A DNA stretch of 64,000 nucleotides from the NCBI GenBank assembly GCA_020241865.1, contig GCA_020241865.1_4709.1, one strand, 5' to 3'. The DNA is from a phage. Shown piece after piece: positions 4,843-45,281 of this stretch (within the stretch, counting starts at the first letter, position 1; each line of letters opens with the position of its first letter). The notes beneath the pieces are model-generated. The model had not been told where the DNA came from and ran no database searches. It saw only the letters and a list, made by a program, of their open reading frames with translations. The translations under genes were made by a program, and so were the position numbers.

Positions 4843-4862
4843 GCTATGCGCTATTTAATTTA

Positions 4863-5135
4863 TTACGAGGTTAACCACGATTCAATTGTGGTGAGTTTGC
4901 TTCTCAGTACGCGCCAACTAGGGTGTGGTGGGATCACAGCGCCTTTGTCGATTACGGTTAGCTGAACCTGGTACTTCTGTTGCATACGCGCTACCGTGTC
5001 GCTTATCGAGAGGAAAAGCTGGTAACGTTCATATGCCGTCAGTTCACTGTCCTGTTGAACTGCGTTGGCCGCTAACGTAATTTCGCGTAAGTCCTTTGCA
5101 TCCACAGAGACGGTAATGAGTTTATATTGACTCAT
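4863..5135 (-). CDS. small hypothetical protein (90 aa)
   Basis: ORF track; ATG 5135 with AAGGA upstream; sits between stem-loop 4808-4842 and next gene. Confidence 0.6.
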   Translation of the reverse strand: MSQYKLITVSVDAKDLREITLAANAVQQDSELTAYERYQLFLSISDTVARMQQKYQVQLTVIDKGAVIPPHPSWRVLRSKLTTIESWLTS

Positions 5136-5196
5136 ACGGTTTCCTTATCAACTAGGGTATTGCAAATACAATACCCACCGTCGGACGATAAGTTAA

Positions 5197-7755
5197 TTAC
5201 TGCTCTTCACGTTCCAGCAGATACTCGGAAGCGGTAATACCGTTTACCGTACGTACTGCTTTCAGACGAGTATCATCGCTCAGAATTACAGTAACAGATT
5301 GCAGACCTTTTACTTTGGTTTCGAAGGTCTTGAACACCTGATCCAGCATACGAGCAATGCTTGGGTTGGTTGCAGCTGATGCGTGGGTGTAACCGCTTTG
5401 GTTCAGCTTCAGAATCTTGGCGTTGGTCGGTACGCGAACAACAACATGCGGACGCATCGCGAATACGCTGTGATTAAACCAGTAAGCATCGTTGCTATCT
5501 TCGTCGGTAACGATGTCTGGATTAACACGCATATCCTCGACAGCCGCATCCGCCAAACGACGTTCGATTTCGTCAGCATCCAGAGAGCCATCTTTCTCCA
5601 GTTCTGCACGATACTCACTCATGGCAACCAGATGACGTTCACGATTCGCTGCGGATTTTTCGTGAGCGGCTTTCAGGTAGTCATGCATGTTGTACAGTTC
5701 TGCCATGGAAAGACGAATGTTCCACTGACCTTCGCCGTCACGATTGCAGTAGAGACACTTCAGCATGTTGACCCAGGTATAGTAGCAATTGGAGAATTCA
5801 TCTTCAATGAACTTCTGGTCCATTTTAAGATCGTGAATCAGCCAACCGGACAGTTCTCCGATATCATCAACGAAGCTAGAGATGGTGGTTTCAGAGAAGT
5901 TCTTCGGTACGATACGTTTGATCAGCTTATTGACGTCTTTGGTCATGCTATCGTTCAGGAAATGCCAGATACGCAGAGGAATGACATCTCGATACTGTTG
6001 CATGATCTGACGATAAGCTTTGATATCGTCGCTACGACCTTTATCAATAGACAACGCATCCAGGAATTCATGGATTGCATCCAGCTCTTTGTCGGTATAG
6101 GTTCCCAGATAGGAATTGACCGTAGCCAGGAATGCTAATGCGTCGTTTTGGTTGACGTCGGTGTTGGTCTGCTGAATGATCGCTACTGAAGCTTTGGTTT
6201 CAGCATCCTCAACGCTTGACGCTGCGATCGCATCGGTGACGGTAAACAGTTTCATTTCGCGCTGCTCACCGACAACGATTGGCTCACGCTGAACCGGCTT
6301 GTTAAGACTAACGCGAACGACTTCTGCTTGCGCGATACGATCCAGTTTTGCCATTTCCTGCTCTGCCATACGACGAGCGGTTGGATCTGATTCAAGTTCG
6401 ATGTATTCCACTTCTTCCTCCGTGAGGGATGTAATGTCAACAATGGTTTCATGAAGAATTCCGTTTTCGTCGATACGTGCTCGACGAGCGAAGTGCCTGA
6501 AGTCATACAACGTCGGCCAACGACTATTAGGTGCGTAGTCTTTGGCTTTCAGACGCATCTGCATAAATTCTTCATGTTGAACAACACGACCGTAACGCTT
6601 AGCATCTTCGGTCGCATCAATTGGATTAACGGTCTTTGTTGCCGTAGCGGAACGAGCCGTACGAACCGGTTCCGGTTTCACCTGCGTCGGTTCAGGTTGA
6701 ACGGGTTTCTGCTGTCCAGCCTTAACATGCCATTCTGGCTCTTCGTACTGTTCAGCAAATTGCTCAGCCGCTGCAAAGATATCGTTGATACCACCAATAT
6801 CTCCTTCAGGATTTGTCGAGTAAATCCGTGGTTGTGGTGCCTCGTAACGCGGCGCTGTAGCAGCAGGTGCGTCATCAACGATAGGATCGTCATCACCAAC
6901 ATCATACAAACGGTTGAACGCACAATCCTTCGAATCAATGTACGATGGCGCTTGTGGTTGGACAACCGTCGGCCGAGGTTGTGCGCCGTATCCTGGTGTT
7001 GTTGGAGCCATGCCGCGCATAACTGCCGGACTAGGTTGGTATTGCGGTTGCGGATAGGTTCCACCATACATGGCGTACGCAGGCTGTTGTGGTTGACCAT
7101 ACCCGCTGCTAACCATCGCACTTGCTTGCGGCCCACGATAAGTCATCCCCATCTGCATCACCTGCTGCTTCAAACCACGTGACTTCTGAGCGATTTGCGC
7201 CAGACTCCCGCTTTTATTCAGCTGCGTGTACTTATTCGCGGCTTCCGGGTTAATGCGTGATAATTCAATCGCGCGATAATATTCCGGGTACTGATTCGGT
7301 TCAAAGAGCCACGTTACAAGATGATACAGCGCAACTGTACTCACGGCAGCAGAGACGATCTGGTCATCGGACGCGTTCTGTGGCATCGGGTTGATGTAAG
7401 AGAATACGTTCCAACAACAGTCTTCAACAAGCGATTCCATCATCATATCGTTATTGGTATAACGTGCGACGAACTCGGTTTGTATTTTGTCTTGCTGAGC
7501 GAAGTCTTTCAGGACATTAAAGATGGCTTGACGGATTTTGACGATCGTCGCTTCTTGGGTGATGAAGTTATAGTTCTGCTGATATGAGGGTTGTTGGTAT
7601 TGTGGTGGTTGATAGGCGTTATTCGGGTATGCGCCGTACGGCGATTGCTGATACTGTTGCTGGCGAACCTGTTCAGCCGCATAATTAACCGTGCTCGTAT
7701 AAGGGTTTTCGCTATAACCCATTTGTTGATACATGTTGTTACTGCCATTATACAT
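5197..7755 (-). CDS. hypothetical protein (852 aa) with Q/Y/P-rich low-complexity N-terminus and internal segment
   Basis: ORF track; ATG 7755 with AAAGGA upstream; long stop-free antisense frames suggest codon bias. Confidence 0.85.
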   Translation of the reverse strand: MYNGSNNMYQQMGYSENPYTSTVNYAAEQVRQQQYQQSPYGAYPNNAYQPPQYQQPSYQQNYNFITQEATIVKIRQAIFNVLKDFAQQDKIQTEFVARYTNNDMMMESLVEDCCWNVFSYINPMPQNASDDQIVSAAVSTVALYHLVTWLFEPNQYPEYYRAIELSRINPEAANKYTQLNKSGSLAQIAQKSRGLKQQVMQMGMTYRGPQASAMVSSGYGQPQQPAYAMYGGTYPQPQYQPSPAVMRGMAPTTPGYGAQPRPTVVQPQAPSYIDSKDCAFNRLYDVGDDDPIVDDAPAATAPRYEAPQPRIYSTNPEGDIGGINDIFAAAEQFAEQYEEPEWHVKAGQQKPVQPEPTQVKPEPVRTARSATATKTVNPIDATEDAKRYGRVVQHEEFMQMRLKAKDYAPNSRWPTLYDFRHFARRARIDENGILHETIVDITSLTEEEVEYIELESDPTARRMAEQEMAKLDRIAQAEVVRVSLNKPVQREPIVVGEQREMKLFTVTDAIAASSVEDAETKASVAIIQQTNTDVNQNDALAFLATVNSYLGTYTDKELDAIHEFLDALSIDKGRSDDIKAYRQIMQQYRDVIPLRIWHFLNDSMTKDVNKLIKRIVPKNFSETTISSFVDDIGELSGWLIHDLKMDQKFIEDEFSNCYYTWVNMLKCLYCNRDGEGQWNIRLSMAELYNMHDYLKAAHEKSAANRERHLVAMSEYRAELEKDGSLDADEIERRLADAAVEDMRVNPDIVTDEDSNDAYWFNHSVFAMRPHVVVRVPTNAKILKLNQSGYTHASAATNPSIARMLDQVFKTFETKVKGLQSVTVILSDDTRLKAVRTVNGITASEYLLEREEQ

Positions 7756-7789
7756 TTCTTACGATCCTTTTTATTTATTCGGTTATGTG

Positions 7790-9586
7790 TCAATCGATTA
7801 TGTCGTGATCGTTAATTTCTACAATTTCTTCATCGAATCGACCGACGTCTTTCTTCAAGCCTGCATTGGTTGCTGCAACGTCATTTGCAATTTGTGGGGT
7901 AATGATTAACCGACCGCGCTCATCGATAGGTGCGTACATACTGAACTTCTGACGTCCGGTTGGTTCGGAGTGTGGAAGATTCAGATAGCTTGCACAGAAC
8001 GGGATGGAACCACTAACCAAACGACTCTCGTCAGCCAATGCAGCACCGCCTGCGTTTTGGCTCTGGAGAACAACATGCGTGCTCACTTTGAACAGCATGC
8101 AATCACCCGGTGACTGAATCGATGTTGCCACTTTCTCACGTTTATCACGATTGCTCTGGATATTGAGAATCGCTTCCGTTGCAACTTGATTTCGCAACGC
8201 CTTCTGTACATCGCGATTGGTCATCTCTTTACGGTTGTTCTGTCGTTTACCACGTTCTGTGGTTTTAAGATGGAACCCCAGTTTAAAGATGCTCTTACGC
8301 ACATCCTCCATGACATATTCCAACACCATCAATTCCTTACCGAACATCGTCGTGGTATCAACACGACTCATTTCGATAGTAACATTGTCAATCAGATAGG
8401 CCATAAATTCATAGAAGTCGTCGCAAGGAATATTTTCCTGTTTGAACTTCTTCTGCTGAATTTCGTCAACGTAAAGATCGAGACTGTCGATGTGGTGGTT
8501 TACATCACGCAACAAACGCGCATCCGCATTGTTGTTATTAAAGATAATCAAACCGAGTAATGTACGCCAATGGTCTGGCGCATTCGCGAACTCTTCAACC
8601 GGATAGTCTTCCGGAAAACGATCGTAATAACGGTCGATGAGATACAAGAATGCACCGACAAGGCCAAGAACAATACGTTCCGTGCCTCCACGTCTTACTG
8701 CAATTTGAATATCAGGATGTTTGTAACGTACAGCGCTAGCGCTACGGCTTTTACCGCTTTTGCTGATACTAAAACCTTTAGGAATAACCCCCATGGTGCG
8801 ATAGATTACCCATTGGTCACGCGGAAAATCACGTTCAGCAAGGTTCCGTCCGGTTACGGCTTCGACACCTGCAAAACGTCGGAAACACTCACCCACCCCG
8901 TACTTCGCAAAGAGATAGTGACCCAGTGTGGTTACGCTGGTGTGGTTGATGTTGTCACCGTTCACTTTACTTTGTTTGGTAAGATGATAGATTTGTGACC
9001 AGGGTAATGACAGGTAATGACGATAATCGATACCGGTCGGTGTATCATTGCTCAGGAACTGATACGGTGTACGTTTAACCGTGATTTTGTCACGCGGAAG
9101 CATGATGAACGCCATGTCTTTCGTGTAACTGATTACCGGGTCAGCGAGCACTGCACTGAGAATGAAGTTCGCACCACGTAGACGCATTTTACCACCCTGA
9201 CCTACCGCGGGTAATAGGAGAGGATGTCGGATAATGCAGTAGTCCTTTCCGGGTTCACGACGGTCACCTGATTCCATCGCTCCGTACCAGCGGAATTCTA
9301 GCATCACCATAAACACATCGGATGGCGCAAGGTCGAAGGTCAGCTTACCGCTATCCTTCCCTTTGGTTTTCTTTCCTCCGCTTAAGTAGTGGAACTGTTC
9401 GCGGGCCATACAGCGACGCAGGCCATGATACACCAGATCCTTAGGTAAACTATCTTTGCTGTTCCGCCAAAGACGATCAACATAGGACTCAACATCTTGC
9501 ATCTTATCGACGACGATGTTGCGTGCTATCTTCTCGTTCATCTTCGGTGCAAGCCCAGCGACAGCTTTGCAGAATCTAGGATCCAT
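7790..9586 (-). CDS. hypothetical protein (about 598 aa)
   Basis: ORF track 7790-9589 starts at GTG; ATG at 9586 has AAAGGAG 6 nt upstream. Confidence 0.85.
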   Translation of the reverse strand: MDPRFCKAVAGLAPKMNEKIARNIVVDKMQDVESYVDRLWRNSKDSLPKDLVYHGLRRCMAREQFHYLSGGKKTKGKDSGKLTFDLAPSDVFMVMLEFRWYGAMESGDRREPGKDYCIIRHPLLLPAVGQGGKMRLRGANFILSAVLADPVISYTKDMAFIMLPRDKITVKRTPYQFLSNDTPTGIDYRHYLSLPWSQIYHLTKQSKVNGDNINHTSVTTLGHYLFAKYGVGECFRRFAGVEAVTGRNLAERDFPRDQWVIYRTMGVIPKGFSISKSGKSRSASAVRYKHPDIQIAVRRGGTERIVLGLVGAFLYLIDRYYDRFPEDYPVEEFANAPDHWRTLLGLIIFNNNNADARLLRDVNHHIDSLDLYVDEIQQKKFKQENIPCDDFYEFMAYLIDNVTIEMSRVDTTTMFGKELMVLEYVMEDVRKSIFKLGFHLKTTERGKRQNNRKEMTNRDVQKALRNQVATEAILNIQSNRDKREKVATSIQSPGDCMLFKVSTHVVLQSQNAGGAALADESRLVSGSIPFCASYLNLPHSEPTGRQKFSMYAPIDERGRLIITPQIANDVAATNAGLKKDVGRFDEEIVEINDHDIID

Positions 9587-9625
9587 CACACACTCCTTTC
9601 AGAAAGTTGCTTAAGCAGATTAAAG

Positions 9626-11062
9626 TTACTTTTTCGATGACGCTTTCTCAAGAATCTTGAAAAAGGTCATACCTATACCGACAACGGCCGCGGTTATGCT
9701 CGCAGCGGCTTTCCAAACATCGACGTTACGTTGACGTCGCGCTTCTTCCGCTTCACGTTGTCTTTTTGCCTCTTCATCACGTCGACGTATCTCAGCAGCA
9801 AACTCGTCGTGCTTACGTTTGGATTCTTCGTCTCGACGACGAAGTTCAGCGACGAATTCTTCATGTTTGCGTTTAGCCTCGTCATCACGACGTTTTAAAT
9901 CAGCTTGATAATCTTCGTGTATTTGTCTACGTAGATCATCTTGACGTTTCATTTCGGCTTGGTGTTGTTCCATCCTACGTTTTTGTTCGTCTTTAAGCTG
10001 ATCGAGTTCGGCTTTATGTTGTTCATCACGCAGCTTTGCGTCGGCGCGATGCGCCTCATGCATCTGTGCGATAACTGCCTTGTGTTCATCCGCCATACGT
10101 CGCATTTCAGCCATCACCCCTTTAAGGGTTTCTTCTGATGCCTTACGTTCGTAGCTACGTTGGTCGAAATCATTTTTGTAGGCTTCTTTTTGGATGGGGT
10201 CGCGCCAATGCAATGCCGATTCACGCGTCGGAAAAACATTGTACTTCCACATCTCTTTTTCCAAATCTTCGACCGGTACGAAGATGGAGTCATTATTCCC
10301 GAAGGTAACCAACATACCTGGCGCGCCTGCTCCATTCGTTGGTTTTATTTCGAACGCTTTCCCCAGCACGTTAACCCATAAGCTATACGGATTATGAAAG
10401 TCGGGCGGCGTCCAATGGATAGTGAGTTGCGTTCCGAGAATCCGGAAACCCTCTGTTTTTCCCGTCAAGCTCCGCGCGCACGTTGCGATGTAGGGGTGAT
10501 CAATCCCTTTCGTAACGTGGTCTGCGCTTTTGTATTCTCCTTTAACTTTTACGATTGCCACGTTGATTTGCGCGACATAAGCAGGTTGATTAAAGTTCAG
10601 CGTGTTGAGGTCAATTTGACATATTTCATCCAGCGTATCGTACCAGTCTTGCTGGTCTAATAGACGCGGCATTTTCTCTGTGTTAACAATACGACGGATA
10701 TGCGGTTTCCTTATCGCGTAACCTGTGCCGTTTTTAACACGGAGTATATCCCGACGTCTACCCGCGTAGACGAAGTTTCTGAATGCACCATTCGCATTAG
10801 ATACGTCATGGCTGTCAACTATTACAGGACTACGAAATTTTGAACGTCGTACGATCCTGAATGTATTGCCGTCCTCAACCCTACCAGGAATGTACTGGAA
10901 CATATTGTCGGAGGTGATAACCAACACGGTATGGCCAGATTCATTAATACATGCCCATCCTAATTCCAGGTCATATAACGGTTCAGCATAACCGTCAATG
11001 CGATAAGCGTGCGTACCATCCCACGGTTCGAACGCGGTATCACATATTGGCATGGAGGGCAT
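9626..11062 (-). CDS. tail-anchored membrane protein candidate: globular N-domain, charged repeat helix, C-terminal hydrophobic segment
   Basis: ORF track (track start 11068 is TTG; ATG 11062 has GGAGG 7 nt upstream); in-frame repeats RRRDEE-x-KRKH-x-EF; hydrophobic stretch AAASITAAVVGIGMTFF near C-terminus. Confidence 0.8.
   Translation of the reverse strand: MPSMPICDTAFEPWDGTHAYRIDGYAEPLYDLELGWACINESGHTVLVITSDNMFQYIPGRVEDGNTFRIVRRSKFRSPVIVDSHDVSNANGAFRNFVYAGRRRDILRVKNGTGYAIRKPHIRRIVNTEKMPRLLDQQDWYDTLDEICQIDLNTLNFNQPAYVAQINVAIVKVKGEYKSADHVTKGIDHPYIATCARSLTGKTEGFRILGTQLTIHWTPPDFHNPYSLWVNVLGKAFEIKPTNGAGAPGMLVTFGNNDSIFVPVEDLEKEMWKYNVFPTRESALHWRDPIQKEAYKNDFDQRSYERKASEETLKGVMAEMRRMADEHKAVIAQMHEAHRADAKLRDEQHKAELDQLKDEQKRRMEQHQAEMKRQDDLRRQIHEDYQADLKRRDDEAKRKHEEFVAELRRRDEESKRKHDEFAAEIRRRDEEAKRQREAEEARRQRNVDVWKAAASITAAVVGIGMTFFKILEKASSKK
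9775..9915 (-). repeat. in-frame tandem repeats inside CDS 9626-11062 encoding charged helix repeats
   Basis: Repeated DNA units visible at about 9780-9900 translating to KRRDDEAKRKHEEFVAELRRRDEESKRKHDEFAAEIRRRDEEAKRQ. Confidence 0.7.
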
Positions 11063-11211
11063 CGTCAACCTCCATCTGATTGAAAACTATCACGCATAAT
11101 ACATTTCCCTTTTCTTGTTCTTATCGAGCCGACAGCCGACGGTTTCAGCATCGTTCCTAGCGCGAGAACGACCTTACGTGTTGTCTATGCCTTATTCATC
11201 GCAGGCGTCTG

Positions 11212-11236
11212 TCACCTAGGTAATGTAAGCGTCAAA
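11212..11236 (-). promoter_or_regulatory. conserved promoter-like motif copy 3 (minus strand TACATTACCTAGGTGA)
   Basis: Shares CACCTAGGTAATGTA core with motifs at 19381-19416 and 57405-57437; lies in 330-bp intergenic region upstream of gene 9626-11062. Confidence 0.4.
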
Positions 11237-11270
11237 TTTTTTCTATTCGCAACAATAAACGGCATAGAAA

Positions 11271-11300
11271 CCTCCCCCAACCCTTACGGGCTGAGGGAGG
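11271..11300 (-). terminator. GC-rich stem-loop, family member in inverted orientation (CCTCCC...GGGAGG around CCC-TTAC-GGG)
   Basis: Inverted repeat read from sequence; downstream of stop of gene 11400-13622 on minus strand. Confidence 0.5.
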
Positions 11301-11399
11301 CTGACTTATGTATCACGGTGCCGGATGAATGTCCGGTGCAATGAAACCATCCGCAACGTTGTCGTCAAGAATATCGTCCAACGAAGCAGCTACGGTAGT

Positions 11400-13622
11400 T
11401 CAGTTAGTCTGAACAGGCAGCTTGATGTTTTCAGTGTAGACCTTACGCAGGTTCACAACGTTAATCAGACCCAGCAGCGGGCAGTTGTTAACGAAGCGGC
11501 AGCGCGGCTGAACCATGGTTTCTTTAGAAACCTGACCGTTACGGGTAACCTGAGCAACAGATACCAGTTCCGGTACATACAGGAACATACCGAAGGTCAG
11601 CGGATCCGGAGAACCCTGGATACCACGAGACAGGGTCACGAAGATCTTATCGCGCAGCATGACGTTCGGGTTATCTACAACCACGAAGTTGAAGCTTACA
11701 CCAACGGTGCGGAAATCACCATCGGTCTGCAGGAACTGCGGGATGTAGTTGTCAGTTGCTACTACGCAACGCGGTTTCTCATCAGCGTTGGAAGACAGCA
11801 GCTGCAGAGCTGGCTGATAACCAGACTCGGAGTACATGCGGTATGCCATCTCACGAATCACGTTCATGATCGCAGCAGACACTTCAGCACGACGTTCTGC
11901 AGTGGTGGTACCCTGAACAGATTTCTCCAGGTCCAGATTGATTTCTTCGAACCACGGACGGATCAGGTAACGACCGAAACCTTCGATCTGGATGTCGCCG
12001 AACTGACGGAAGCGAGAGGTCGCAACCGCTTTCAGTGCGTCTTTGTAGCTGAACAGTTTCTCAACCATCAGGTTGTCGAAACGTGCGTTAGCAGCTTGGA
12101 TCAGAACGTCCAGGTCAGCAGCGTTTTCTTCCCAATCCAGCGGACGAGGAATGGAGAACGGAGCCAGCAGGCCGATTGCGTAACGTTCTTGCTTCATGTT
12201 GAAGTCAAGGTGCTTACCGCGCTCACGACGGTTGCTGTTGTTACGGCGGATACGCAGTTCGTAACCAACCAGTTTGAAGCTCAGGTCTTCAGCCAGTTGT
12301 TTGAACTCTTCGCTCTTACGCGGTTGTTCGATGTTGTCCTGATCAACCAGGCGATACAGTTCAGCGTTAGCGCCGTTAACACGCAGACCGGCTTTCTCTA
12401 CGTTGGAAGAACCGTAAACTTCGATCGCCAGCTGAGCAGCAGATTTCGCATCGATGATGTCCTGCAGCGCTTCAGCTTTCGCGCCTTTAACGTCTTTGGT
12501 GTTCTCATCAACGAAGATGGAGTGGGTGTCGAACGCCAGGGTCATTTTGCGGAAGTCGCCTTCCAGGGATTTCTGGAAACCGTTGGTGATCAGACCAGAT
12601 ACGTCGAACGGTACGTAAGAGGTTTTGCTGTGCTTGGTAGATTTGATTTCCACCAGGATTTTGGTCAGCGTGATCTGGGCGTCCAGCGCGTCGGTGTTGT
12701 CGCTGTAACCGTTAGCCAGGATGCTATCGTCTTCAGCAATACCGATCATGTCGATCAGTTTATCAACAGCCAGGTAAGACGTTTTGTAAGTTACGCCTTT
12801 AATTTCGATGTCGCGCGGAGCAACGATAGCTTTGTCAACGAAGTACTGTGCGTTAGCATCGTCAGCACGATAGATCGGATGCAGATCGGTCACGTCGTTG
12901 GACAGAACGTCGTTGTACATGAACGCATCCAGCAGCGGACGACGTACCCAATCAGCCGGAGTACCGTCAGCGTTACGACGCAGGTGGTTGAACACCAGCG
13001 GACGACGGAAAGATACGTCGTAACCGATCTGGTTCGGAGCCAGAACGATGGTGTTGTACAGTTCGTTACCCATGCGGCTCAGACGAGAAGCCTTCACGTT
13101 GAACACAACGGAGTACGGCATCATGTCACGCAGTTCTTTCTGGTCGTAGGACAGCTGAACCAGTTCTTCAGATTCGCAACCGCAGGAATCAGCAGCCATC
13201 ATGACGAAGTTAGAGCTGTCAACTTCACGGCCAGACGGAGTGGTGCTGATGTTCATGGAACGTGCTTGTTTAGCATATTCTACCGGGTTACCATGAGCCA
13301 GCATGATCAGTGCTGCTGCACGAGCCTGCTGTGCGTTCATGGTGAACAGCTGTTCTTCAATACGCTGCTTCTCTTCCGGAGTGGTGGTTTCGAAGCCCAG
13401 CATGGACAGAACCGGTTCTTCGGCTTTACGGATGTCGCTGCTGAAGCTCTTAACATCCATTTCGTTAACCAGTTTGTCCATGGATTTGAAATCAACCTTA
13501 GAAGCAGATTCCATAGACAGGAAGGTGTTCTCCAGACCTTTGTCTGCTGGTTTGCTACCATTAGCGGTCAGGAACTGGCGAGTGGCCGCGACCTGTTGGC
13601 TAAGAAGGGTTTTATCATTCAT
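11400..13622 (-). CDS. highly expressed virion protein, candidate major capsid protein (740 aa)
   Basis: ORF track; ATG 13622 with AAAGGA upstream; strong codon bias (CTG, CGT, GGT, GAA dominate) and a 766-aa stop-free antisense frame; size fits jumbo-phage capsid proteins; no motif-level proof. Confidence 0.85.
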   Translation of the reverse strand: MNDKTLLSQQVAATRQFLTANGSKPADKGLENTFLSMESASKVDFKSMDKLVNEMDVKSFSSDIRKAEEPVLSMLGFETTTPEEKQRIEEQLFTMNAQQARAAALIMLAHGNPVEYAKQARSMNISTTPSGREVDSSNFVMMAADSCGCESEELVQLSYDQKELRDMMPYSVVFNVKASRLSRMGNELYNTIVLAPNQIGYDVSFRRPLVFNHLRRNADGTPADWVRRPLLDAFMYNDVLSNDVTDLHPIYRADDANAQYFVDKAIVAPRDIEIKGVTYKTSYLAVDKLIDMIGIAEDDSILANGYSDNTDALDAQITLTKILVEIKSTKHSKTSYVPFDVSGLITNGFQKSLEGDFRKMTLAFDTHSIFVDENTKDVKGAKAEALQDIIDAKSAAQLAIEVYGSSNVEKAGLRVNGANAELYRLVDQDNIEQPRKSEEFKQLAEDLSFKLVGYELRIRRNNSNRRERGKHLDFNMKQERYAIGLLAPFSIPRPLDWEENAADLDVLIQAANARFDNLMVEKLFSYKDALKAVATSRFRQFGDIQIEGFGRYLIRPWFEEINLDLEKSVQGTTTAERRAEVSAAIMNVIREMAYRMYSESGYQPALQLLSSNADEKPRCVVATDNYIPQFLQTDGDFRTVGVSFNFVVVDNPNVMLRDKIFVTLSRGIQGSPDPLTFGMFLYVPELVSVAQVTRNGQVSKETMVQPRCRFVNNCPLLGLINVVNLRKVYTENIKLPVQTN

Positions 13623-13771
13623 TGAAAGTATCCTTTACAGAATTAACTTATATAAGTCGGTCGATAGACCATAGCGTACACGCGTGCATGCGCCACTATA
13701 GTATCAGTAAACACTTACCGTTATTGAGGTCGTGATACAACACTAAAAATGCCGCATAACTTTTCCCTACG

Positions 13772-16063: not shown

Positions 16064-16112
16064 GCGGTTCCCTCCTCCAACCCGTAAGGGAAGGAGGAGG
16101 GGTTATGACCGC
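16064..16112. terminator. GC-rich stem-loop CCCTCCTCC-AA-CCC-GTAA-GGG-AA-GGAGGAGGG with extended flanking stem GCGGT/ACCGC, between convergent genes
   Basis: Perfect inverted repeat; A11 tract 16047-16057 gives a U-tract after the hairpin for minus-strand transcripts. Confidence 0.65.
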
Positions 16113-19433: not shown

Positions 19434-19465
19434 CCCTCTCCCAACCCGTAAGGGAAGGGAGAGGG
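19434..19465 (-). terminator. GC-rich stem-loop CCCTCTCCC-AA-CCC-GTAA-GGG-AA-GGGAGAGGG (family member)
   Basis: Perfect inverted repeat starting 5 nt after stop of gene 19470-20837. Confidence 0.65.
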
Positions 19466-30665: not shown

Positions 30666-30697
30666 CCTTCCTCCAACCCGTAAGGGAAGGAGGAAGG
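30666..30697 (-). terminator. GC-rich stem-loop CCTTCCTCC-AA-CCC-GTAA-GGG-AA-GGAGGAAGG (family member)
   Basis: Perfect inverted repeat between stop 30708 and start 30559; arms carry a compensatory T/A change relative to other copies. Confidence 0.65.
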
Positions 30698-33371: not shown

Positions 33372-33403
33372 CCCTCTCCCAACCCGTAAGGGAAGGGAGA
33401 GGG
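33372..33403 (-). terminator. GC-rich stem-loop CCCTCTCCC-AA-CCC-GTAA-GGG-AA-GGGAGAGGG (family member)
   Basis: Perfect inverted repeat between stop 33426 and start 33323. Confidence 0.65.
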
Positions 33404-41687: not shown

Positions 41688-44600
41688 TTATCTTACGTTA
41701 TTGCTGTTCTGCTGTTCGCTGAACCAACCATACACCTTGAGATCGGTACCGTATTTCAACGCGATATACGCATTCAGCGCAGCACAGAACAAAGACGCGA
41801 ATGCCCATATCAGCGAAGGATCAACATCTTCCGTTACCATTGGGAGAGTATTATCCGGTTCCCATGATGGAGAACTGTCCATGAACGTTGCGTACCATCC
41901 CCGCCGTTGTTCTTCGGTGGTAAAGTCGCTATGGGGTTCCAATGCTTCTTTTGCCAGACGTCGATATTCGAACATATGCGTTGCTAAAGCCGATGAGTTA
42001 CCAGATTCGCCTTCATAGTTCGGATCCACCGCATAACAGAGTTCTGTGGAATCTAACAAAGCAACCGCCTGTGTGATGTTGTCGGCAGTGCCTGCACCAT
42101 AGAGCTCGATAGACCGCGAAAGCTTTTCACAGAACGCATTTAACGCGGAAGGATTGGACACCTGAAGGTCAAGGCCTAATGTCCACGGATAGTTACTGAA
42201 TACGCCCGTAAACCGCGGCATAACACCCAACAGATGTTGTCCGATTACAGCACGGTTATAAACAGCCCGGTTATAGACTTGAAACGCAGCCTCCAAAGCT
42301 TGGTTATAATGACGACGAAGTTCGTCACGCGAGTTGCGGAATCTGTTTGCCGCAAGACTTGTGGCTGCGACGCTACAAACATCGTAATTGGTGGACGAGA
42401 GCACAGTTTCGTTAAGATCGAACGATTCCTGTTTCAACGATCCGCTAACCGCTGCTGCTTCGCTGTTTGCTTTATCGACAACAGTACTCAAAGCGTTGAT
42501 GTAACGTTTAGCTCGGACTTCCAGCCATTGTGCGATACCGAGAATATCCACCGCGGCTTTAGCAAGATCGCGTGCATTCACGATTTCGTTCTTCAACGCC
42601 CCTAAACCTTTATTTTCAGGCGTTGAGGCTTGTTGACGAATCATACTGTTCAACATGGTAAGCAGATTATCCAACTCATGTCCGCTGACCTTGTTGCGCG
42701 CATCGGTAATCGGCCCTTGCAGGAATTTACGACAACCGTCATTATACCGAATCAGTTTATCCACGTCGATGGATTCGTTCGTGGTTTCCTTGAACTGATT
42801 CTTTAATTCTTCACGGTAGTCGTGTATCTCGCTTGTAAGATTATCAACGGTGATACCATTGTGACCAAGAAGAACTTTACTGAAGTTGCCCTTCTCGAAC
42901 GCCAGTGCGATGTCTTCACGAATCTTAGCCAGTTTATCCTGATCTAATTCACGACCGTTTGACAGTTCTTTCACTTCAGCACTGATTATTGCTGCAACCG
43001 TTCCAAGGTTATCGGTAACCCCTTTGAACGTGCTTGACCAAACACTTCCCGCTTCAGCGTATTTTGCGATGGTCTGGATACCGACGCTATGTAACGACGC
43101 TAAACGTTTCTTCGTACCTTCGGTAAGCAATGCATCTTTAGCTCGCGTAAGTTGACTGTTATTGGCTTCCGCTTGCTGGATGGCCGCTTTCGCATTCCCG
43201 TTACGCCAGCTCTTAACCAACCAATCGACCAAACGTTTCAGGATGTTGATGGTATATTCCATCGTACGTCGTAACGTTTCCCATGCGCTTTCAGCGGTAT
43301 AGATCCCACCAACAGTGTACCCTTCCATCTTCAGCGCTTTGGTATCGGTTTGACGTGCCAACCATTCTACCGTCGCAGAACAAACGTTTACGAACGCCTC
43401 CAGGTAGTTGTAATAGGCCTCTGTTGCGGAGGTTTCGTTGAGCTTCGAATGCAGATAAAACTGTTCGTATAGCTCGTCGTCATCACCGAAGGCGTCGTAG
43501 TTCCACAGTTCGGTATCGCAGCCGGTACCACAGAAGACATCCGCCGTTGTAAACTCCTTAAGTGCTTTCGTTGCGTCGTTGGTCAGGAATTTACCTGTCT
43601 CAAGTACGTCGTCAACATTAAGTCTCGGGAGTTCGTCAGTAATTGGGTTTTCCAGCATCAACGTATTGAAGAACACGCTGTACTTGTATCCAAGCCATTT
43701 TGGATAACTGTTTTCAGATATCGTAGACGCCGGTTTGATTTTCTTGGCTTCAGCCAACGTGTCTTCTGCAACCTGATATTGGTTTTCCCCAGCTTTGATA
43801 CGTCGTAATGCTTTTTCTTCCAACTGTTTGAGTTTGGTGTGCCGTGCTTGAGCTGGAGCCTCAACCAGTTTTTGTACCGACCGCATGGCGGAAATCGCTT
43901 CTTTCAATGTGGTGATCGGCATACGAACTTTACCGTCATCGAAACTCAGCGCGCGAGCAATACGTCGACTTACAACAGGTTCGGTATGGATGTTTCTTTC
44001 TACCCACGATTTGTTTGCGTAGGTTTGCGTGATTTGCTGCTGGATCTTTTCAAGATAGCCCCAGCTTTTGGATGCTTTGCCGTCCAAAAGCGGATTAGGT
44101 CCTTTCTTATCAAAAAGCTTTTTGATAGGATCAAAGAAACCTTCTTGCACGAGATCGATACGGGTGTAACCATCAGCTGCTTCGATTTCTTCTTGGGTTT
44201 TATCCCAGAAGTCGTCGCTCTTTGCAGCAACCGCTGTATCTTTAATGTCCAGGATGATCTGACCCACCGTTTGCGCAAACAGCAAGGCCGCACGTACCGA
44301 TTGTGCGAACATCCGCTGATATTTGATTCGAACGCATTGCATCTGGGTTAGCAGATTCAGTTGCGCGATCCCATCCAAGGTGCTATCTTGAGCAAGTCCT
44401 TCAGCCTTAGCGATAACCTGTTTTACACGTTCAGCGACATCAACGTATTGCTGGCATACATCCCGCAGAATACGTGCTGCGAAGACCCCGGTACCGATAT
44501 AGTTCAACAGGTCTTTTAATGACCATTCAGACGGACAATCGGCTGGTGCGGTAGGGAGTAAGCAACCATCACCGTCCATGAATCGCTCTAATGCACTAAT

Positions 44601-45281
44601 ATCCTGATTTTCTACTCTCATGGGGATATCAGCATCAGCGGCTTGCAGATCCAGCATCTGTTGTAGGATGTTGGTATCGGTTTGCACAAGCGTCGCAAGC
44701 GCTTGGCTGTGTGCGATTATTGGTAACGCTGGTGACCATACTGCAGCAAGCTTGTCGGCGTGACGTTGAATGGCATACCCCATATCCTCGATCACATCGG
44801 GATGCTCGATAACCCCCTGAAGCGTTTGATGTAGCTCACCGAGTTGCTGAGACAGATCGACCATCATGGTGTTGAAGGTTTCGCCATCCTCTTTGTGGTT
44901 GTCCAGACGCTCAAGTTCATGTTGAAGCAATGCGACGAGCTGTCCGTTGCCTTCTTGCTTCAGCTTGCTTTCCATTAACGTAACGGCTTTATCGACGATC
45001 TGGCACGCTTCACGAAAACCGGTTGTGGAAGGAAGCTCTGTCCATAACGCCAGCGGTTTACCGTCAAGGGCTTCCGGCATCGATAACGAAAGCATAGACA
45101 GTTGTTGACGTGATACTTGCTGTTCACGGTGTAATGTTTCTTTTAACGCCAAGAGATCGTCAAGAAACGCGCCGTTAAGGGTGGTCGTACGCGGTGTTGA
45201 ATTAATACCGTCAGTTAACGATTCAAGCACCAGGAGACCGTTATCAGCTGAAGAGAGTCCCGCGGCAAGATATTTGTTCAT
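41688..45281 (-). CDS. large hypothetical protein (1197 aa)
   Basis: ORF track; ATG 45281 with ACGGAG upstream. Confidence 0.85.
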   Translation of the reverse strand: MNKYLAAGLSSADNGLLVLESLTDGINSTPRTTTLNGAFLDDLLALKETLHREQQVSRQQLSMLSLSMPEALDGKPLALWTELPSTTGFREACQIVDKAVTLMESKLKQEGNGQLVALLQHELERLDNHKEDGETFNTMMVDLSQQLGELHQTLQGVIEHPDVIEDMGYAIQRHADKLAAVWSPALPIIAHSQALATLVQTDTNILQQMLDLQAADADIPMRVENQDISALERFMDGDGCLLPTAPADCPSEWSLKDLLNYIGTGVFAARILRDVCQQYVDVAERVKQVIAKAEGLAQDSTLDGIAQLNLLTQMQCVRIKYQRMFAQSVRAALLFAQTVGQIILDIKDTAVAAKSDDFWDKTQEEIEAADGYTRIDLVQEGFFDPIKKLFDKKGPNPLLDGKASKSWGYLEKIQQQITQTYANKSWVERNIHTEPVVSRRIARALSFDDGKVRMPITTLKEAISAMRSVQKLVEAPAQARHTKLKQLEEKALRRIKAGENQYQVAEDTLAEAKKIKPASTISENSYPKWLGYKYSVFFNTLMLENPITDELPRLNVDDVLETGKFLTNDATKALKEFTTADVFCGTGCDTELWNYDAFGDDDELYEQFYLHSKLNETSATEAYYNYLEAFVNVCSATVEWLARQTDTKALKMEGYTVGGIYTAESAWETLRRTMEYTINILKRLVDWLVKSWRNGNAKAAIQQAEANNSQLTRAKDALLTEGTKKRLASLHSVGIQTIAKYAEAGSVWSSTFKGVTDNLGTVAAIISAEVKELSNGRELDQDKLAKIREDIALAFEKGNFSKVLLGHNGITVDNLTSEIHDYREELKNQFKETTNESIDVDKLIRYNDGCRKFLQGPITDARNKVSGHELDNLLTMLNSMIRQQASTPENKGLGALKNEIVNARDLAKAAVDILGIAQWLEVRAKRYINALSTVVDKANSEAAAVSGSLKQESFDLNETVLSSTNYDVCSVAATSLAANRFRNSRDELRRHYNQALEAAFQVYNRAVYNRAVIGQHLLGVMPRFTGVFSNYPWTLGLDLQVSNPSALNAFCEKLSRSIELYGAGTADNITQAVALLDSTELCYAVDPNYEGESGNSSALATHMFEYRRLAKEALEPHSDFTTEEQRRGWYATFMDSSPSWEPDNTLPMVTEDVDPSLIWAFASLFCAALNAYIALKYGTDLKVYGWFSEQQNSNNVR

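Follow-up and report, generated by a model that had tools for sequence, protein, structure and literature searches.

The window analysed here is a 64,000-nucleotide (nt) stretch of phage DNA (contig GCA_020241865.1_4709.1). Its open reading frame (ORF) at positions 9626 to 11062 of the minus strand encodes a protein of 478 amino acids (plus stop codon) that is 99.6% identical to HOV27_gp040 (gp40) of Escherichia phage vB_EcoM_Goslar, where it is annotated as hypothetical. Goslar was the sole phage match to gp40 in GenBank (tblastn, 50,697 phage records), and no mention of Goslar gp40 or of its accession was found in the literature. In the Goslar record, gp040 is flanked by gp041, the major head protein, and by gp039, annotated as a polymerase. 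In the window, the upstream ORF matches the Pfam family PhiKZ_MCP (PF25620) with an E value of 5e-218, and the downstream ORF, gp39, matches a PHROG polymerase family with an E value of 1e-119. The gap between gp40 and gp39 measures approximately 36 to 39 nt, varying with the start codon chosen for gp39. The features of the locus are collected in Table 1.

Goslar gp40 represents the core gene cg35, which is exclusive to nucleus-forming jumbo phages. Table S3 of Prichard 2023 (PMC10299810) equates cg35 with Goslar gp040, PhiKZ gp122, and RAY gp001, labels it "hypothetical," and marks it with an asterisk as unique to chimallin-encoding phages. The searches made here agree with this restriction, chimallin not having been looked for contig by contig in the metagenomes. 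A search of 1.84 billion representatives returned three matches only, which are Goslar-like proteins and their relatives. [quoted passage not shown] A gene of 258 to 375 codons occupies the equivalent position in 16 diverse GenBank chimalliviruses, including PhiKZ, PhiPA3 (gene 138, AEH03561.1 in the GenBank feature table), Phabio, Eowyn, and PCH45, and hhalign of the Goslar-clade profile against these 16 positional orthologues gives a probability of 98.5% (E = 3e-15) over residues 29 to 286. The nvRNAP gene is immediately preceded by a family member in 16 of 16 GenBank phages and at 80 of 80 IMG/VR loci retrieved with an nvRNAP profile, the IMG/VR members having hmmsearch E values of 1e-17 to 1e-108. 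A capsid gene lies upstream wherever that flank is annotated. Among PHROG families, phrog_7727 matches gp40 with an E value of 4e-5, and all those matching the gp40 family (7727, 7286, and 15024) lack an assigned function. Clustering at 60% identity reduced 101 family proteins to 57 clusters.

Some NCBI isolate assemblies under the labels Salmonella enterica and E. coli O157 also contain Goslar-like sequences (P0004, P0006, and P0012 to P0014), on contigs as long as approximately 244 kb, which points to a carried or contaminating jumbo phage.

Three-part architecture of gp40

The N-terminal domain (residues 1 to 288) has an ordinary globular composition, with 34% hydrophobic residues and 13% Gly/Pro. 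Residues N40, H189, P190, G249, and A283 are near-invariant across 59 family representatives. A Pfam scan retrieved nothing for gp40 and just scattered single-member noise across 21 family members. A Foldseek search of BFVD with the low-confidence AlphaFold2 model gave as its top 23 matches uncharacterised proteins of 311 to 406 amino acids, and the matches named by organism all come from jumbo phages of the chimallivirus group, including 201phi2-1 and Eowyn.

This domain is followed by a charged stalk. AlphaFold2, run twice with inputs of 8 and 11 sequences, places the stalk both times in a single continuous helix spanning residues 289 to 475, with predicted local distance difference test (pLDDT) scores of approximately 80 to 93 over the charged part. 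Residues 321 to 447 comprise 28% K/R, 28% D/E, and 15% hydrophobic residues, with zero G/P. Opposite-charge pairs are more frequent than in sequences made by shuffling these residues at i+3 (z = 6.4) and at i+4 (z = 5.2), and less frequent at i+1 (z = −3.8). With 0.25 to 0.38 pairs per residue at i+4 (z = 4.6 to 5.2) and z scores of 5.3 to 6.4 at i+3, the charge pattern of the stalk is that of ER/K single alpha-helices (SAHs).

The stalk is repetitive. Tandem Repeats Finder (TRF) reports at 9764 to 9892 a period of 54 nt with 2.4 copies and 69% matches, and the autocorrelation of the protein sequence has peaks of 0.33 and 0.24 at lags 18 and 36, with the value at lag 7 (0.12) at background level. 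Approximately six units of 18 amino acids fit in register over residues 333 to 440. Adjacent units share 46 to 63% DNA identity, and the three clearest units share 59 to 65% with each other. The hydrophobic residues recur with a period of 3.64 to 3.66 residues (power of 33.6 at 3.67 versus 3.4 at 3.50 over residues 333 to 447), which matches an 18/5 or 11/3 repeat. A canonical heptad coiled coil was rejected on this period and on the background autocorrelation at lag 7. Of the 12 hydrophobic residues in the interval 353 to 425, 10 cluster at 140 to 220 degrees of the helical wheel and the remaining two lie at 80 and 260 degrees. The result is a narrow, straight seam in which F, L/I/M, A, and H recur every 18 residues, that is, every five turns exactly.

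The stalk is also the part of the protein in which Goslar-like homologues differ in length (460, 478, 489, and 507 amino acids). Relative to Goslar, the indels measure 18, 11, and 29 amino acids, and all of them lie at residues 318 to 386, N-terminal of the three clear repeats. They correspond to 5.0, 3.06, and 8.06 helical turns, so that azimuthal phase is held within approximately 20 degrees, which suggests selection for keeping a continuous helix with its seam, or the relation between head and anchor, in register. Identity to Goslar among these homologues is 90 to 99% in the N-terminal domain, 55 to 100% in the variable stalk, 81 to 98% in the 18-residue repeats, and 97 to 100% in the juxtamembrane segment, hydrophobic segment, and tail (residues 441 to 478), the most conserved part. 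Alleles P0003 and P0010 have in common a divergent stalk cassette over residues 318 to 386 (55 to 59% identity to Goslar, 11 additional residues), whereas their N-terminal domains differ (98% and 90% identity to Goslar, respectively). The same stalk variant joined to unlike N-terminal domains suggests recombination within the stalk-coding region.

Across lineages, the stalk, measured from the conserved alanine equivalent to A283 up to the start of the tail, spans 27 to 197 residues with a median of 97, and the stalks of close Goslar relatives (150 to 197 residues) are the longest measured. A charged helical stalk is present throughout the family, and the ER/K ion-pair signature is strongest in the Goslar lineage (z = 7 to 8 versus a family median of 1.5). 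The two relatives with approximately 31% identity (P0015 and P0016) repeat the three-part architecture, their stalks being shorter. The contig of P0016 (L002) has the gene order helicase, small gene, major capsid protein (MCP), X, nvRNAP subunit.

A sequence-only reading of this DNA had described the stalk as approximately 130 residues of heptad-like repeats whose exact lengths suggested recent expansion. The charged helix is real according to both the models and the composition, and its length is approximately 160 residues. The repeat unit is 18 residues (54 nt) and not a heptad, and the divergence among units, together with the presence of the three clear repeats in all Goslar-like homologues, speaks against recent expansion. 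That reading had also looked to relatives for the repeats. The three clear ones are indeed constant among Goslar-like phages, with the stalk upstream of them varying by indels, but the repeat is confined to the Goslar lineage, being partial in P0015. The suggestion of a ruler does not survive as one of fixed length, given the spread of stalk lengths both across lineages and among close relatives.

The segment AAASITAAVVGIGMTFF (residues 452 to 468) is the only hydrophobic segment of gp40, with a 17-residue Kyte-Doolittle (KD) mean of 1.82 compared with at most 0.89 elsewhere. This uncharged run of 17 residues, 59% of which are small, has K451 and K469 at its borders and the tail KILEKASSKK after it. 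On KD hydropathy, gp40 has the sequence features of a tail-anchored protein: one hydrophobic segment near the C terminus with 10 residues after it, and no other transmembrane (TM) segment or signal peptide. In the AlphaFold2 models, the hydrophobic tail prolongs the long helix and is not buried. A strict test for a TM-like tail (15 or more consecutive uncharged residues and a 17-residue KD mean no lower than 1.5, inside the C-terminal 45 residues) is passed by 2 of the 46 window ORFs of at least 150 amino acids. The other passing ORF lies at 41688 to 45281 on the minus strand (1197 amino acids, uncharged run of 15, KD mean of 1.82).

The same test is passed in 38 of the 57 family clusters, and approximately eight more are borderline, with runs of 13 to 15 residues or KD values just under the cutoff. 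Small residues abound in the family tails, which typically have a lysine-flanked uncharged run of 16 to 17 residues, starting in many lineages with [FWL]-[LI]-P. They are preceded by a conserved motif, (Y-x-E-R-S-x-x-)R-[RK]-[DN]-x-x-[DE]-x-x-K, and ARRQRNVDVWK in Goslar corresponds to the family motif in the form R-[RK]-[DN]-x-x-[DE]-x-[WL]-K, which other lineages show. Hydrophobicity of the tail is conserved across lineages and its sequence is not, which is the usual behavior of a lipid anchor. The order of parts proposed by the sequence-only reading, an N-terminal domain of approximately 290 residues, a charged helix, a C-terminal hydrophobic segment, and a short basic tail, is present in full (residues 1 to 288, 289 to 450, 452 to 468, and 469 to 478). 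The resemblance to a membrane-anchored spacer that it noted likewise holds at the level of prediction, since the tail is unburied in the models and the architecture is kept at 31% identity and in those 38 clusters. The buried helix of a globular fold that it had named as a counterindication does not appear in the models.

The early transcription unit of gp40

RNA sequencing of Goslar infections at 30 min postinfection, comparing ChmA knock-down with control (10.1101/2023.09.20.558163, Supplementary Table 2), separates gp40 from the capsid gene. In the knock-down, gp040 rises (log2 fold change of +0.85 to +1.09) together with gp039 (+0.74 to +1.09), gp038 (+0.81 to +1.17), and gp037 (+0.69 to +0.98), while the MCP transcript gp041 (about −4.0) and the late gp036 (−5.6 to −6.8) fall. 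These opposite responses of gp040 and MCP place gp40 in the chimallin-independent early program run from the EPI (early phage infection) vesicle. The data support a model in which gp40 heads an early unit, gp40-gp39-gp38-gp37 (4860 to 11062, minus strand), that is flanked by late genes and set apart from the late capsid gene. The PhiKZ homologue behaves similarly: control reads of gene 122 number 3405, 4255, 2580, 2200, and 945 at 5, 10, 15, 20, and 30 min, and they climb to 5927 in the chmA knock-down, in parallel with nvRNAP gene 123 and opposite to the late MCP gene (PMC12571901).

Between the MCP stop codon and gp40 lies a hairpin with a 15-bp stem and a GUAA loop (ΔG = −31.3 kcal/mol, z = −5.8), followed by UUUCU. 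This hairpin is a probable terminator separating the late MCP gene from the gp40 unit. It was missed by a consensus terminator scan and revealed by k-mer recurrence and folding. Its loop motif, CCCGTAAGGG, occurs in 5 copies in the window versus 0.03 expected, the further copies being at 16081 to 16090, 19445 to 19454, 30677 to 30686, and 33383 to 33392 (+), and the hairpins with this motif look like a shared Goslar terminator family. In the record of phage FBKp24, a terminator and a promoter are annotated between the capsid gene and the cg35 homologue.

Approximately 200 nt at 11063 to 11268 (minus strand), between the hairpin and the ribosome-binding site of gp40, are untranslated and presumably hold an early promoter for the virion RNA polymerase (vRNAP). 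No recurring promoter motif was found upstream of gp40, and a sigma-70 promoter scan found none, which is no surprise in a phage that encodes its own polymerases. Between the capsid gene and cg35, PhiKZ and PhiPA3 each have one additional small gene (gp121 and gene 137, respectively); Goslar has none of at least 40 amino acids there. A 766-codon open frame runs antisense to the entire capsid gene (11325 to 13625, plus strand) and is most likely a shadow ORF arising from codon bias and no gene.

Table 1. Positions of gp40, its domains, and neighboring features in the window
Feature	Position	Strand	Basis
gp40 coding sequence (core gene cg35)	9626..11062	-	ORF translation, Goslar record, Prichard 2023 Table S3
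Shine-Dalgarno sequence GGAGG	11069..11073	-	6-nt spacer to ATG at 11062; read from sequence
N-terminal beta-rich domain, residues 1-288	10199..11062	-	Conserved family domain by hhalign
Charged alpha-helical stalk, ER/K-like, residues 289-450	9713..10198	-	AlphaFold2 and charge-pair statistics
Array of approximately six 18-residue (54-nt) units, residues 333-440	9743..10066	-	TRF, register alignment, autocorrelation
Three clear repeat units, residues 387-440	9743..9904	-	Part of six-unit array
Juxtamembrane basic/aromatic segment ARRQRNVDVWK, residues 441-451	9710..9742	-	Conservation, family motif
Predicted C-terminal TM anchor AAASITAAVVGIGMTFF, residues 452-468	9659..9709	-	Hydrophobicity, family tails
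Short basic C-terminal tail KILEKASSKK, residues 469-478, net +3	9629..9658	-	Sequence
Hairpin, probable terminator, downstream of MCP gene	11269..11302	-	Folding, k-mer recurrence
gp39, nvRNAP beta-type subunit (PhiKZ gp123 homologue)	7790..9586 (ORF to 9589)	-	PHROG, Goslar record
gp41, major capsid protein, late, outside gp40 unit	11400..13622	-	PF25620, RNA sequencing
gp38, 852 amino acids, hypothetical	5197..7755	-	Co-directional early block
gp37	4860..5135	-	Co-directional early block

Possible roles at the membrane and the phage nucleus

Published data place one homologue near the chimallin shell. PhiPA3 gene 138 was recovered in green fluorescent protein (GFP) pulldowns of ChmA and of ChmB and was labelled by ChmA-miniTurboID, and the authors describe it as conserved and of unknown role (PMC10643120). 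In an antisense screen of PhiKZ, both oligomers against gene 122 weakly lower plaques and ChmA, and the knock-down is among the few that strongly perturb phage transcription at 30 min (PMC12571901). Knock-down of PhiKZ gene 124, the positional counterpart of Goslar gp38, likewise perturbs phage transcription. The EPI vesicle of Goslar remains joined to the nucleus and turns together with it, with more than 95% of ChmA shells being vesicle associated, and the authors leave both the binding of the two compartments and the transfer of the genome unexplained (10.1101/2023.09.20.558163); two reviews pose the same questions. None of the papers examined describes a phage-encoded membrane protein at the interface between vesicle and shell, and the words transmembrane and tail-anchored are absent from the 2025 and 2026 reviews. 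A full-text literature search found nothing joining chimallin or chimallivirus with transmembrane, a scope outside which the published EPI-vesicle and Juk papers fall, so that a prior description is possible.

Our tentative reading is that gp40 is a tail-anchored stalk protein acting at the interface between membrane and shell during establishment of the nucleus. The tail would insert posttranslationally into a bilayer, that of the inner membrane or of the EPI vesicle that arises from it, with the N-terminal domain remaining cytoplasmic. The helix would be a rigid stalk of the ER/K type, marked by a straight and narrow hydrophobic seam, and would hold the N-terminal domain up to approximately 24 nm off the membrane (160 residues × 0.15 nm); this domain may contact the chimallin shell or a shell-associated complex. 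In this way, gp40 could link membrane and shell, as a tether or spacer, at the time when the nucleus forms. A core protein that is early, predicted to be membrane anchored, and close to the shell lends itself as a candidate for the link between EPI vesicle and nucleus. It is nevertheless doubtful, if conceivable, that gp40 contributes to the physical attachment of the EPI vesicle to the nascent nucleus. [quoted passage not shown]

Several observations weigh against the tether reading. The tail is short and marginally hydrophobic, its sum on the Hessa 2005 scale being approximately +1.35 kcal/mol for 17 residues, and the C-terminal net charge of +3 is unfavorable for translocation across the inner membrane. 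PhiKZ and PhiPA3, the source of the data on shell proximity and knock-down, have D/E-containing tails that fail the TM test, as do the charged tails of Phabio, the BUCT660/FBKp24/L050 group, phiKT1019, and CF8. Amphipathicity of the tail is significant in FBKp24, phiKT1019, BUCT660, and Phabio but not in PhiKZ or PhiPA3. Membrane association of the family members is a prediction from sequence. Between lineages, stalks differ in length by more than 7-fold, a poor fit to one fixed geometry. AlphaFold2 confidence for the N-terminal domain is low (pLDDT of 23 to 75, below 50 for most residues), and the domain has no Pfam, NCBI-style, or PDB match, the PDB profile search having yielded nothing below an E value of 0.42. 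Finally, the start of PhiKZ gene 123 lies 10 nt past gene 122, and the knock-down phenotype of gene 122 may be a polar or translational-coupling effect on this nvRNAP gene.

The charged tails of PhiKZ, PhiPA3, Phabio, and the FBKp24 group also fit a different use of the C terminus, as a protein-protein module through which the stalk homo-oligomerizes or docks in the chimallin lattice or a shell-embedded complex, so that gp40 would be soluble or a shell-bound fiber projecting from the nucleus. ChmA-miniTurboID labelling of the PhiPA3 homologue and its copurification with ChmA and ChmB agree with such a module, as do the content of 31 to 59% G/A/S/T in the tails, typical of tightly packed helices, and the narrow, straight seam with its phase-preserving indels, which suggests helix-helix packing. 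We consider it unlikely, because the tail sequence is poorly conserved and yet the run length of 16 to 17 residues, the lysine flanks, the juxtamembrane motif, and the terminal position are kept, which is the pattern of a lipid anchor, and because the published descriptions of the shell that were examined contain no hydrophobic acceptor site. A membrane location could instead serve a step unrelated to the EPI vesicle, with gp40 as an inner membrane factor that, for example, nucleates or organizes procapsid assembly at the cell membrane. Phage T4 gp40 has an analogous role as a membrane chaperone aiding portal-initiated head assembly. The place of cg35 directly downstream of the MCP gene, kept wherever that flank is annotated, is in line with this role. 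For nucleus-forming phages, capsid assembly is reported to take place on the membrane (introduction of PMC10299810), and the ChmB pulldowns containing the PhiPA3 homologue are also rich in capsid proteins (PMC10643120). This capsid-assembly role appears distinctly unlikely: the gp40 transcript is early and chimallin independent, unlike those of MCP and the structural genes, and a strong hairpin parts gp40 from MCP at the point where FBKp24 has its annotated terminator and promoter. Phage gene expression, moreover, is barely altered by knock-down of MCP but is altered by that of PhiKZ gene 122, and the PhiPA3 homologue is annotated merely as hypothetical while its neighbors are labelled virion structural.

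The other conserved neighbor raises the question of whether gp40 is an accessory factor of the nvRNAP or of early-to-late switching, perhaps translationally coupled, with a TM-like tail that is incidental. Adjacency to and co-orientation with the nvRNAP gene hold at 96 of 96 loci, the expression kinetics of the two genes are identical, and knock-down disturbs phage transcription at 30 min, a phenotype that polarity on gene 123 explains equally well. The nvRNAP acts inside the nucleus, however, and a conserved TM-like tail on a 24-nm stalk would be unlikely for a subunit of a nuclear enzyme. To our knowledge, purified PhiKZ nvRNAP consists of gp55, gp68, gp71-73, gp74, and gp123, without gp122. 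A polymerase-accessory function is, in our estimate, highly improbable.

Of the chimallivirus core genome, about a third occurs in nucleus-forming phages alone, and for the majority of these genes, cg35 among them, no function is known. Four properties of cg35 fit the role of a connector: a predicted tail anchor in most lineages, expression before the nucleus, a homologue near ChmA and ChmB, and a tunable stalk length. Should the membrane prediction fail, a core gene would still have gained a defined architecture, expression class, and operon and a corrected description of its repeat.

Comparison with known systems

Outside the cg35 family, gp40 resembles several proteins in outline. ElaB and YqjD (DUF883) have a helical region in the cytoplasm, one C-terminal TM helix rich in Gly/Ala, and a basic C terminus of very few residues. 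Their outline is similar to that of gp40, but they lack its 288-residue beta-rich domain, and DUF883 membership was rejected because Pfam gave no such match in gp40 (E values up to 0.1) or in 21 family members (E values up to 1). A PHROG match of gp40, to phrog_1893, is weak (E = 0.0077). The ER/K SAH domains of myosin X and caldesmon share with the stalk the dense i+3/i+4 pairing of Glu/Asp with Lys/Arg, the low hydrophobicity, and the absence of Gly/Pro. Pure SAH domains have no hydrophobic seam, whereas the gp40 stalk has one at 140 to 260 degrees.

Tail-anchored tethers with long stalks, such as golgins and SNAREs, offer a further parallel. In SNAREs, a basic/aromatic juxtamembrane segment stands right before the C-terminal anchor, as in gp40. 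The heptad SNARE motif is absent from gp40, which has a period of 3.64 and not 3.5, and no homology to these tethers was detected. Among phage proteins, i-spanins and holins likewise combine a single TM segment with a long helix. The i-spanins, however, are anchored at the N terminus, have their coiled coil in the periplasm, and are encoded by late lysis genes, in contrast to the predicted C-terminal anchor, probable cytoplasmic orientation, and early RNA polymerase-subunit operon of gp40. Identity as a spanin or holin was rejected on the C-terminal position of the predicted anchor, the capsid and RNA polymerase neighbors, and early expression.

The closest comparison is with the other cg35 members. 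PhiKZ gp122, PhiPA3 gene 138, 201phi2-1 gp202, and RAY gp001 are like gp40 in the N-terminal domain, the position between MCP and nvRNAP genes, and the order of domains. The Goslar lineage differs from them in having the longest stalk, the strongest ER/K signature, and, alone in the family, the 18-residue repeat, and the PhiKZ and PhiPA3 members differ from Goslar in having no clean TM tail. The cg35 family is thus already catalogued, though uncharacterised, and a tail-anchored protein on a helical stalk is of a familiar kind, whereas the biological setting is new.

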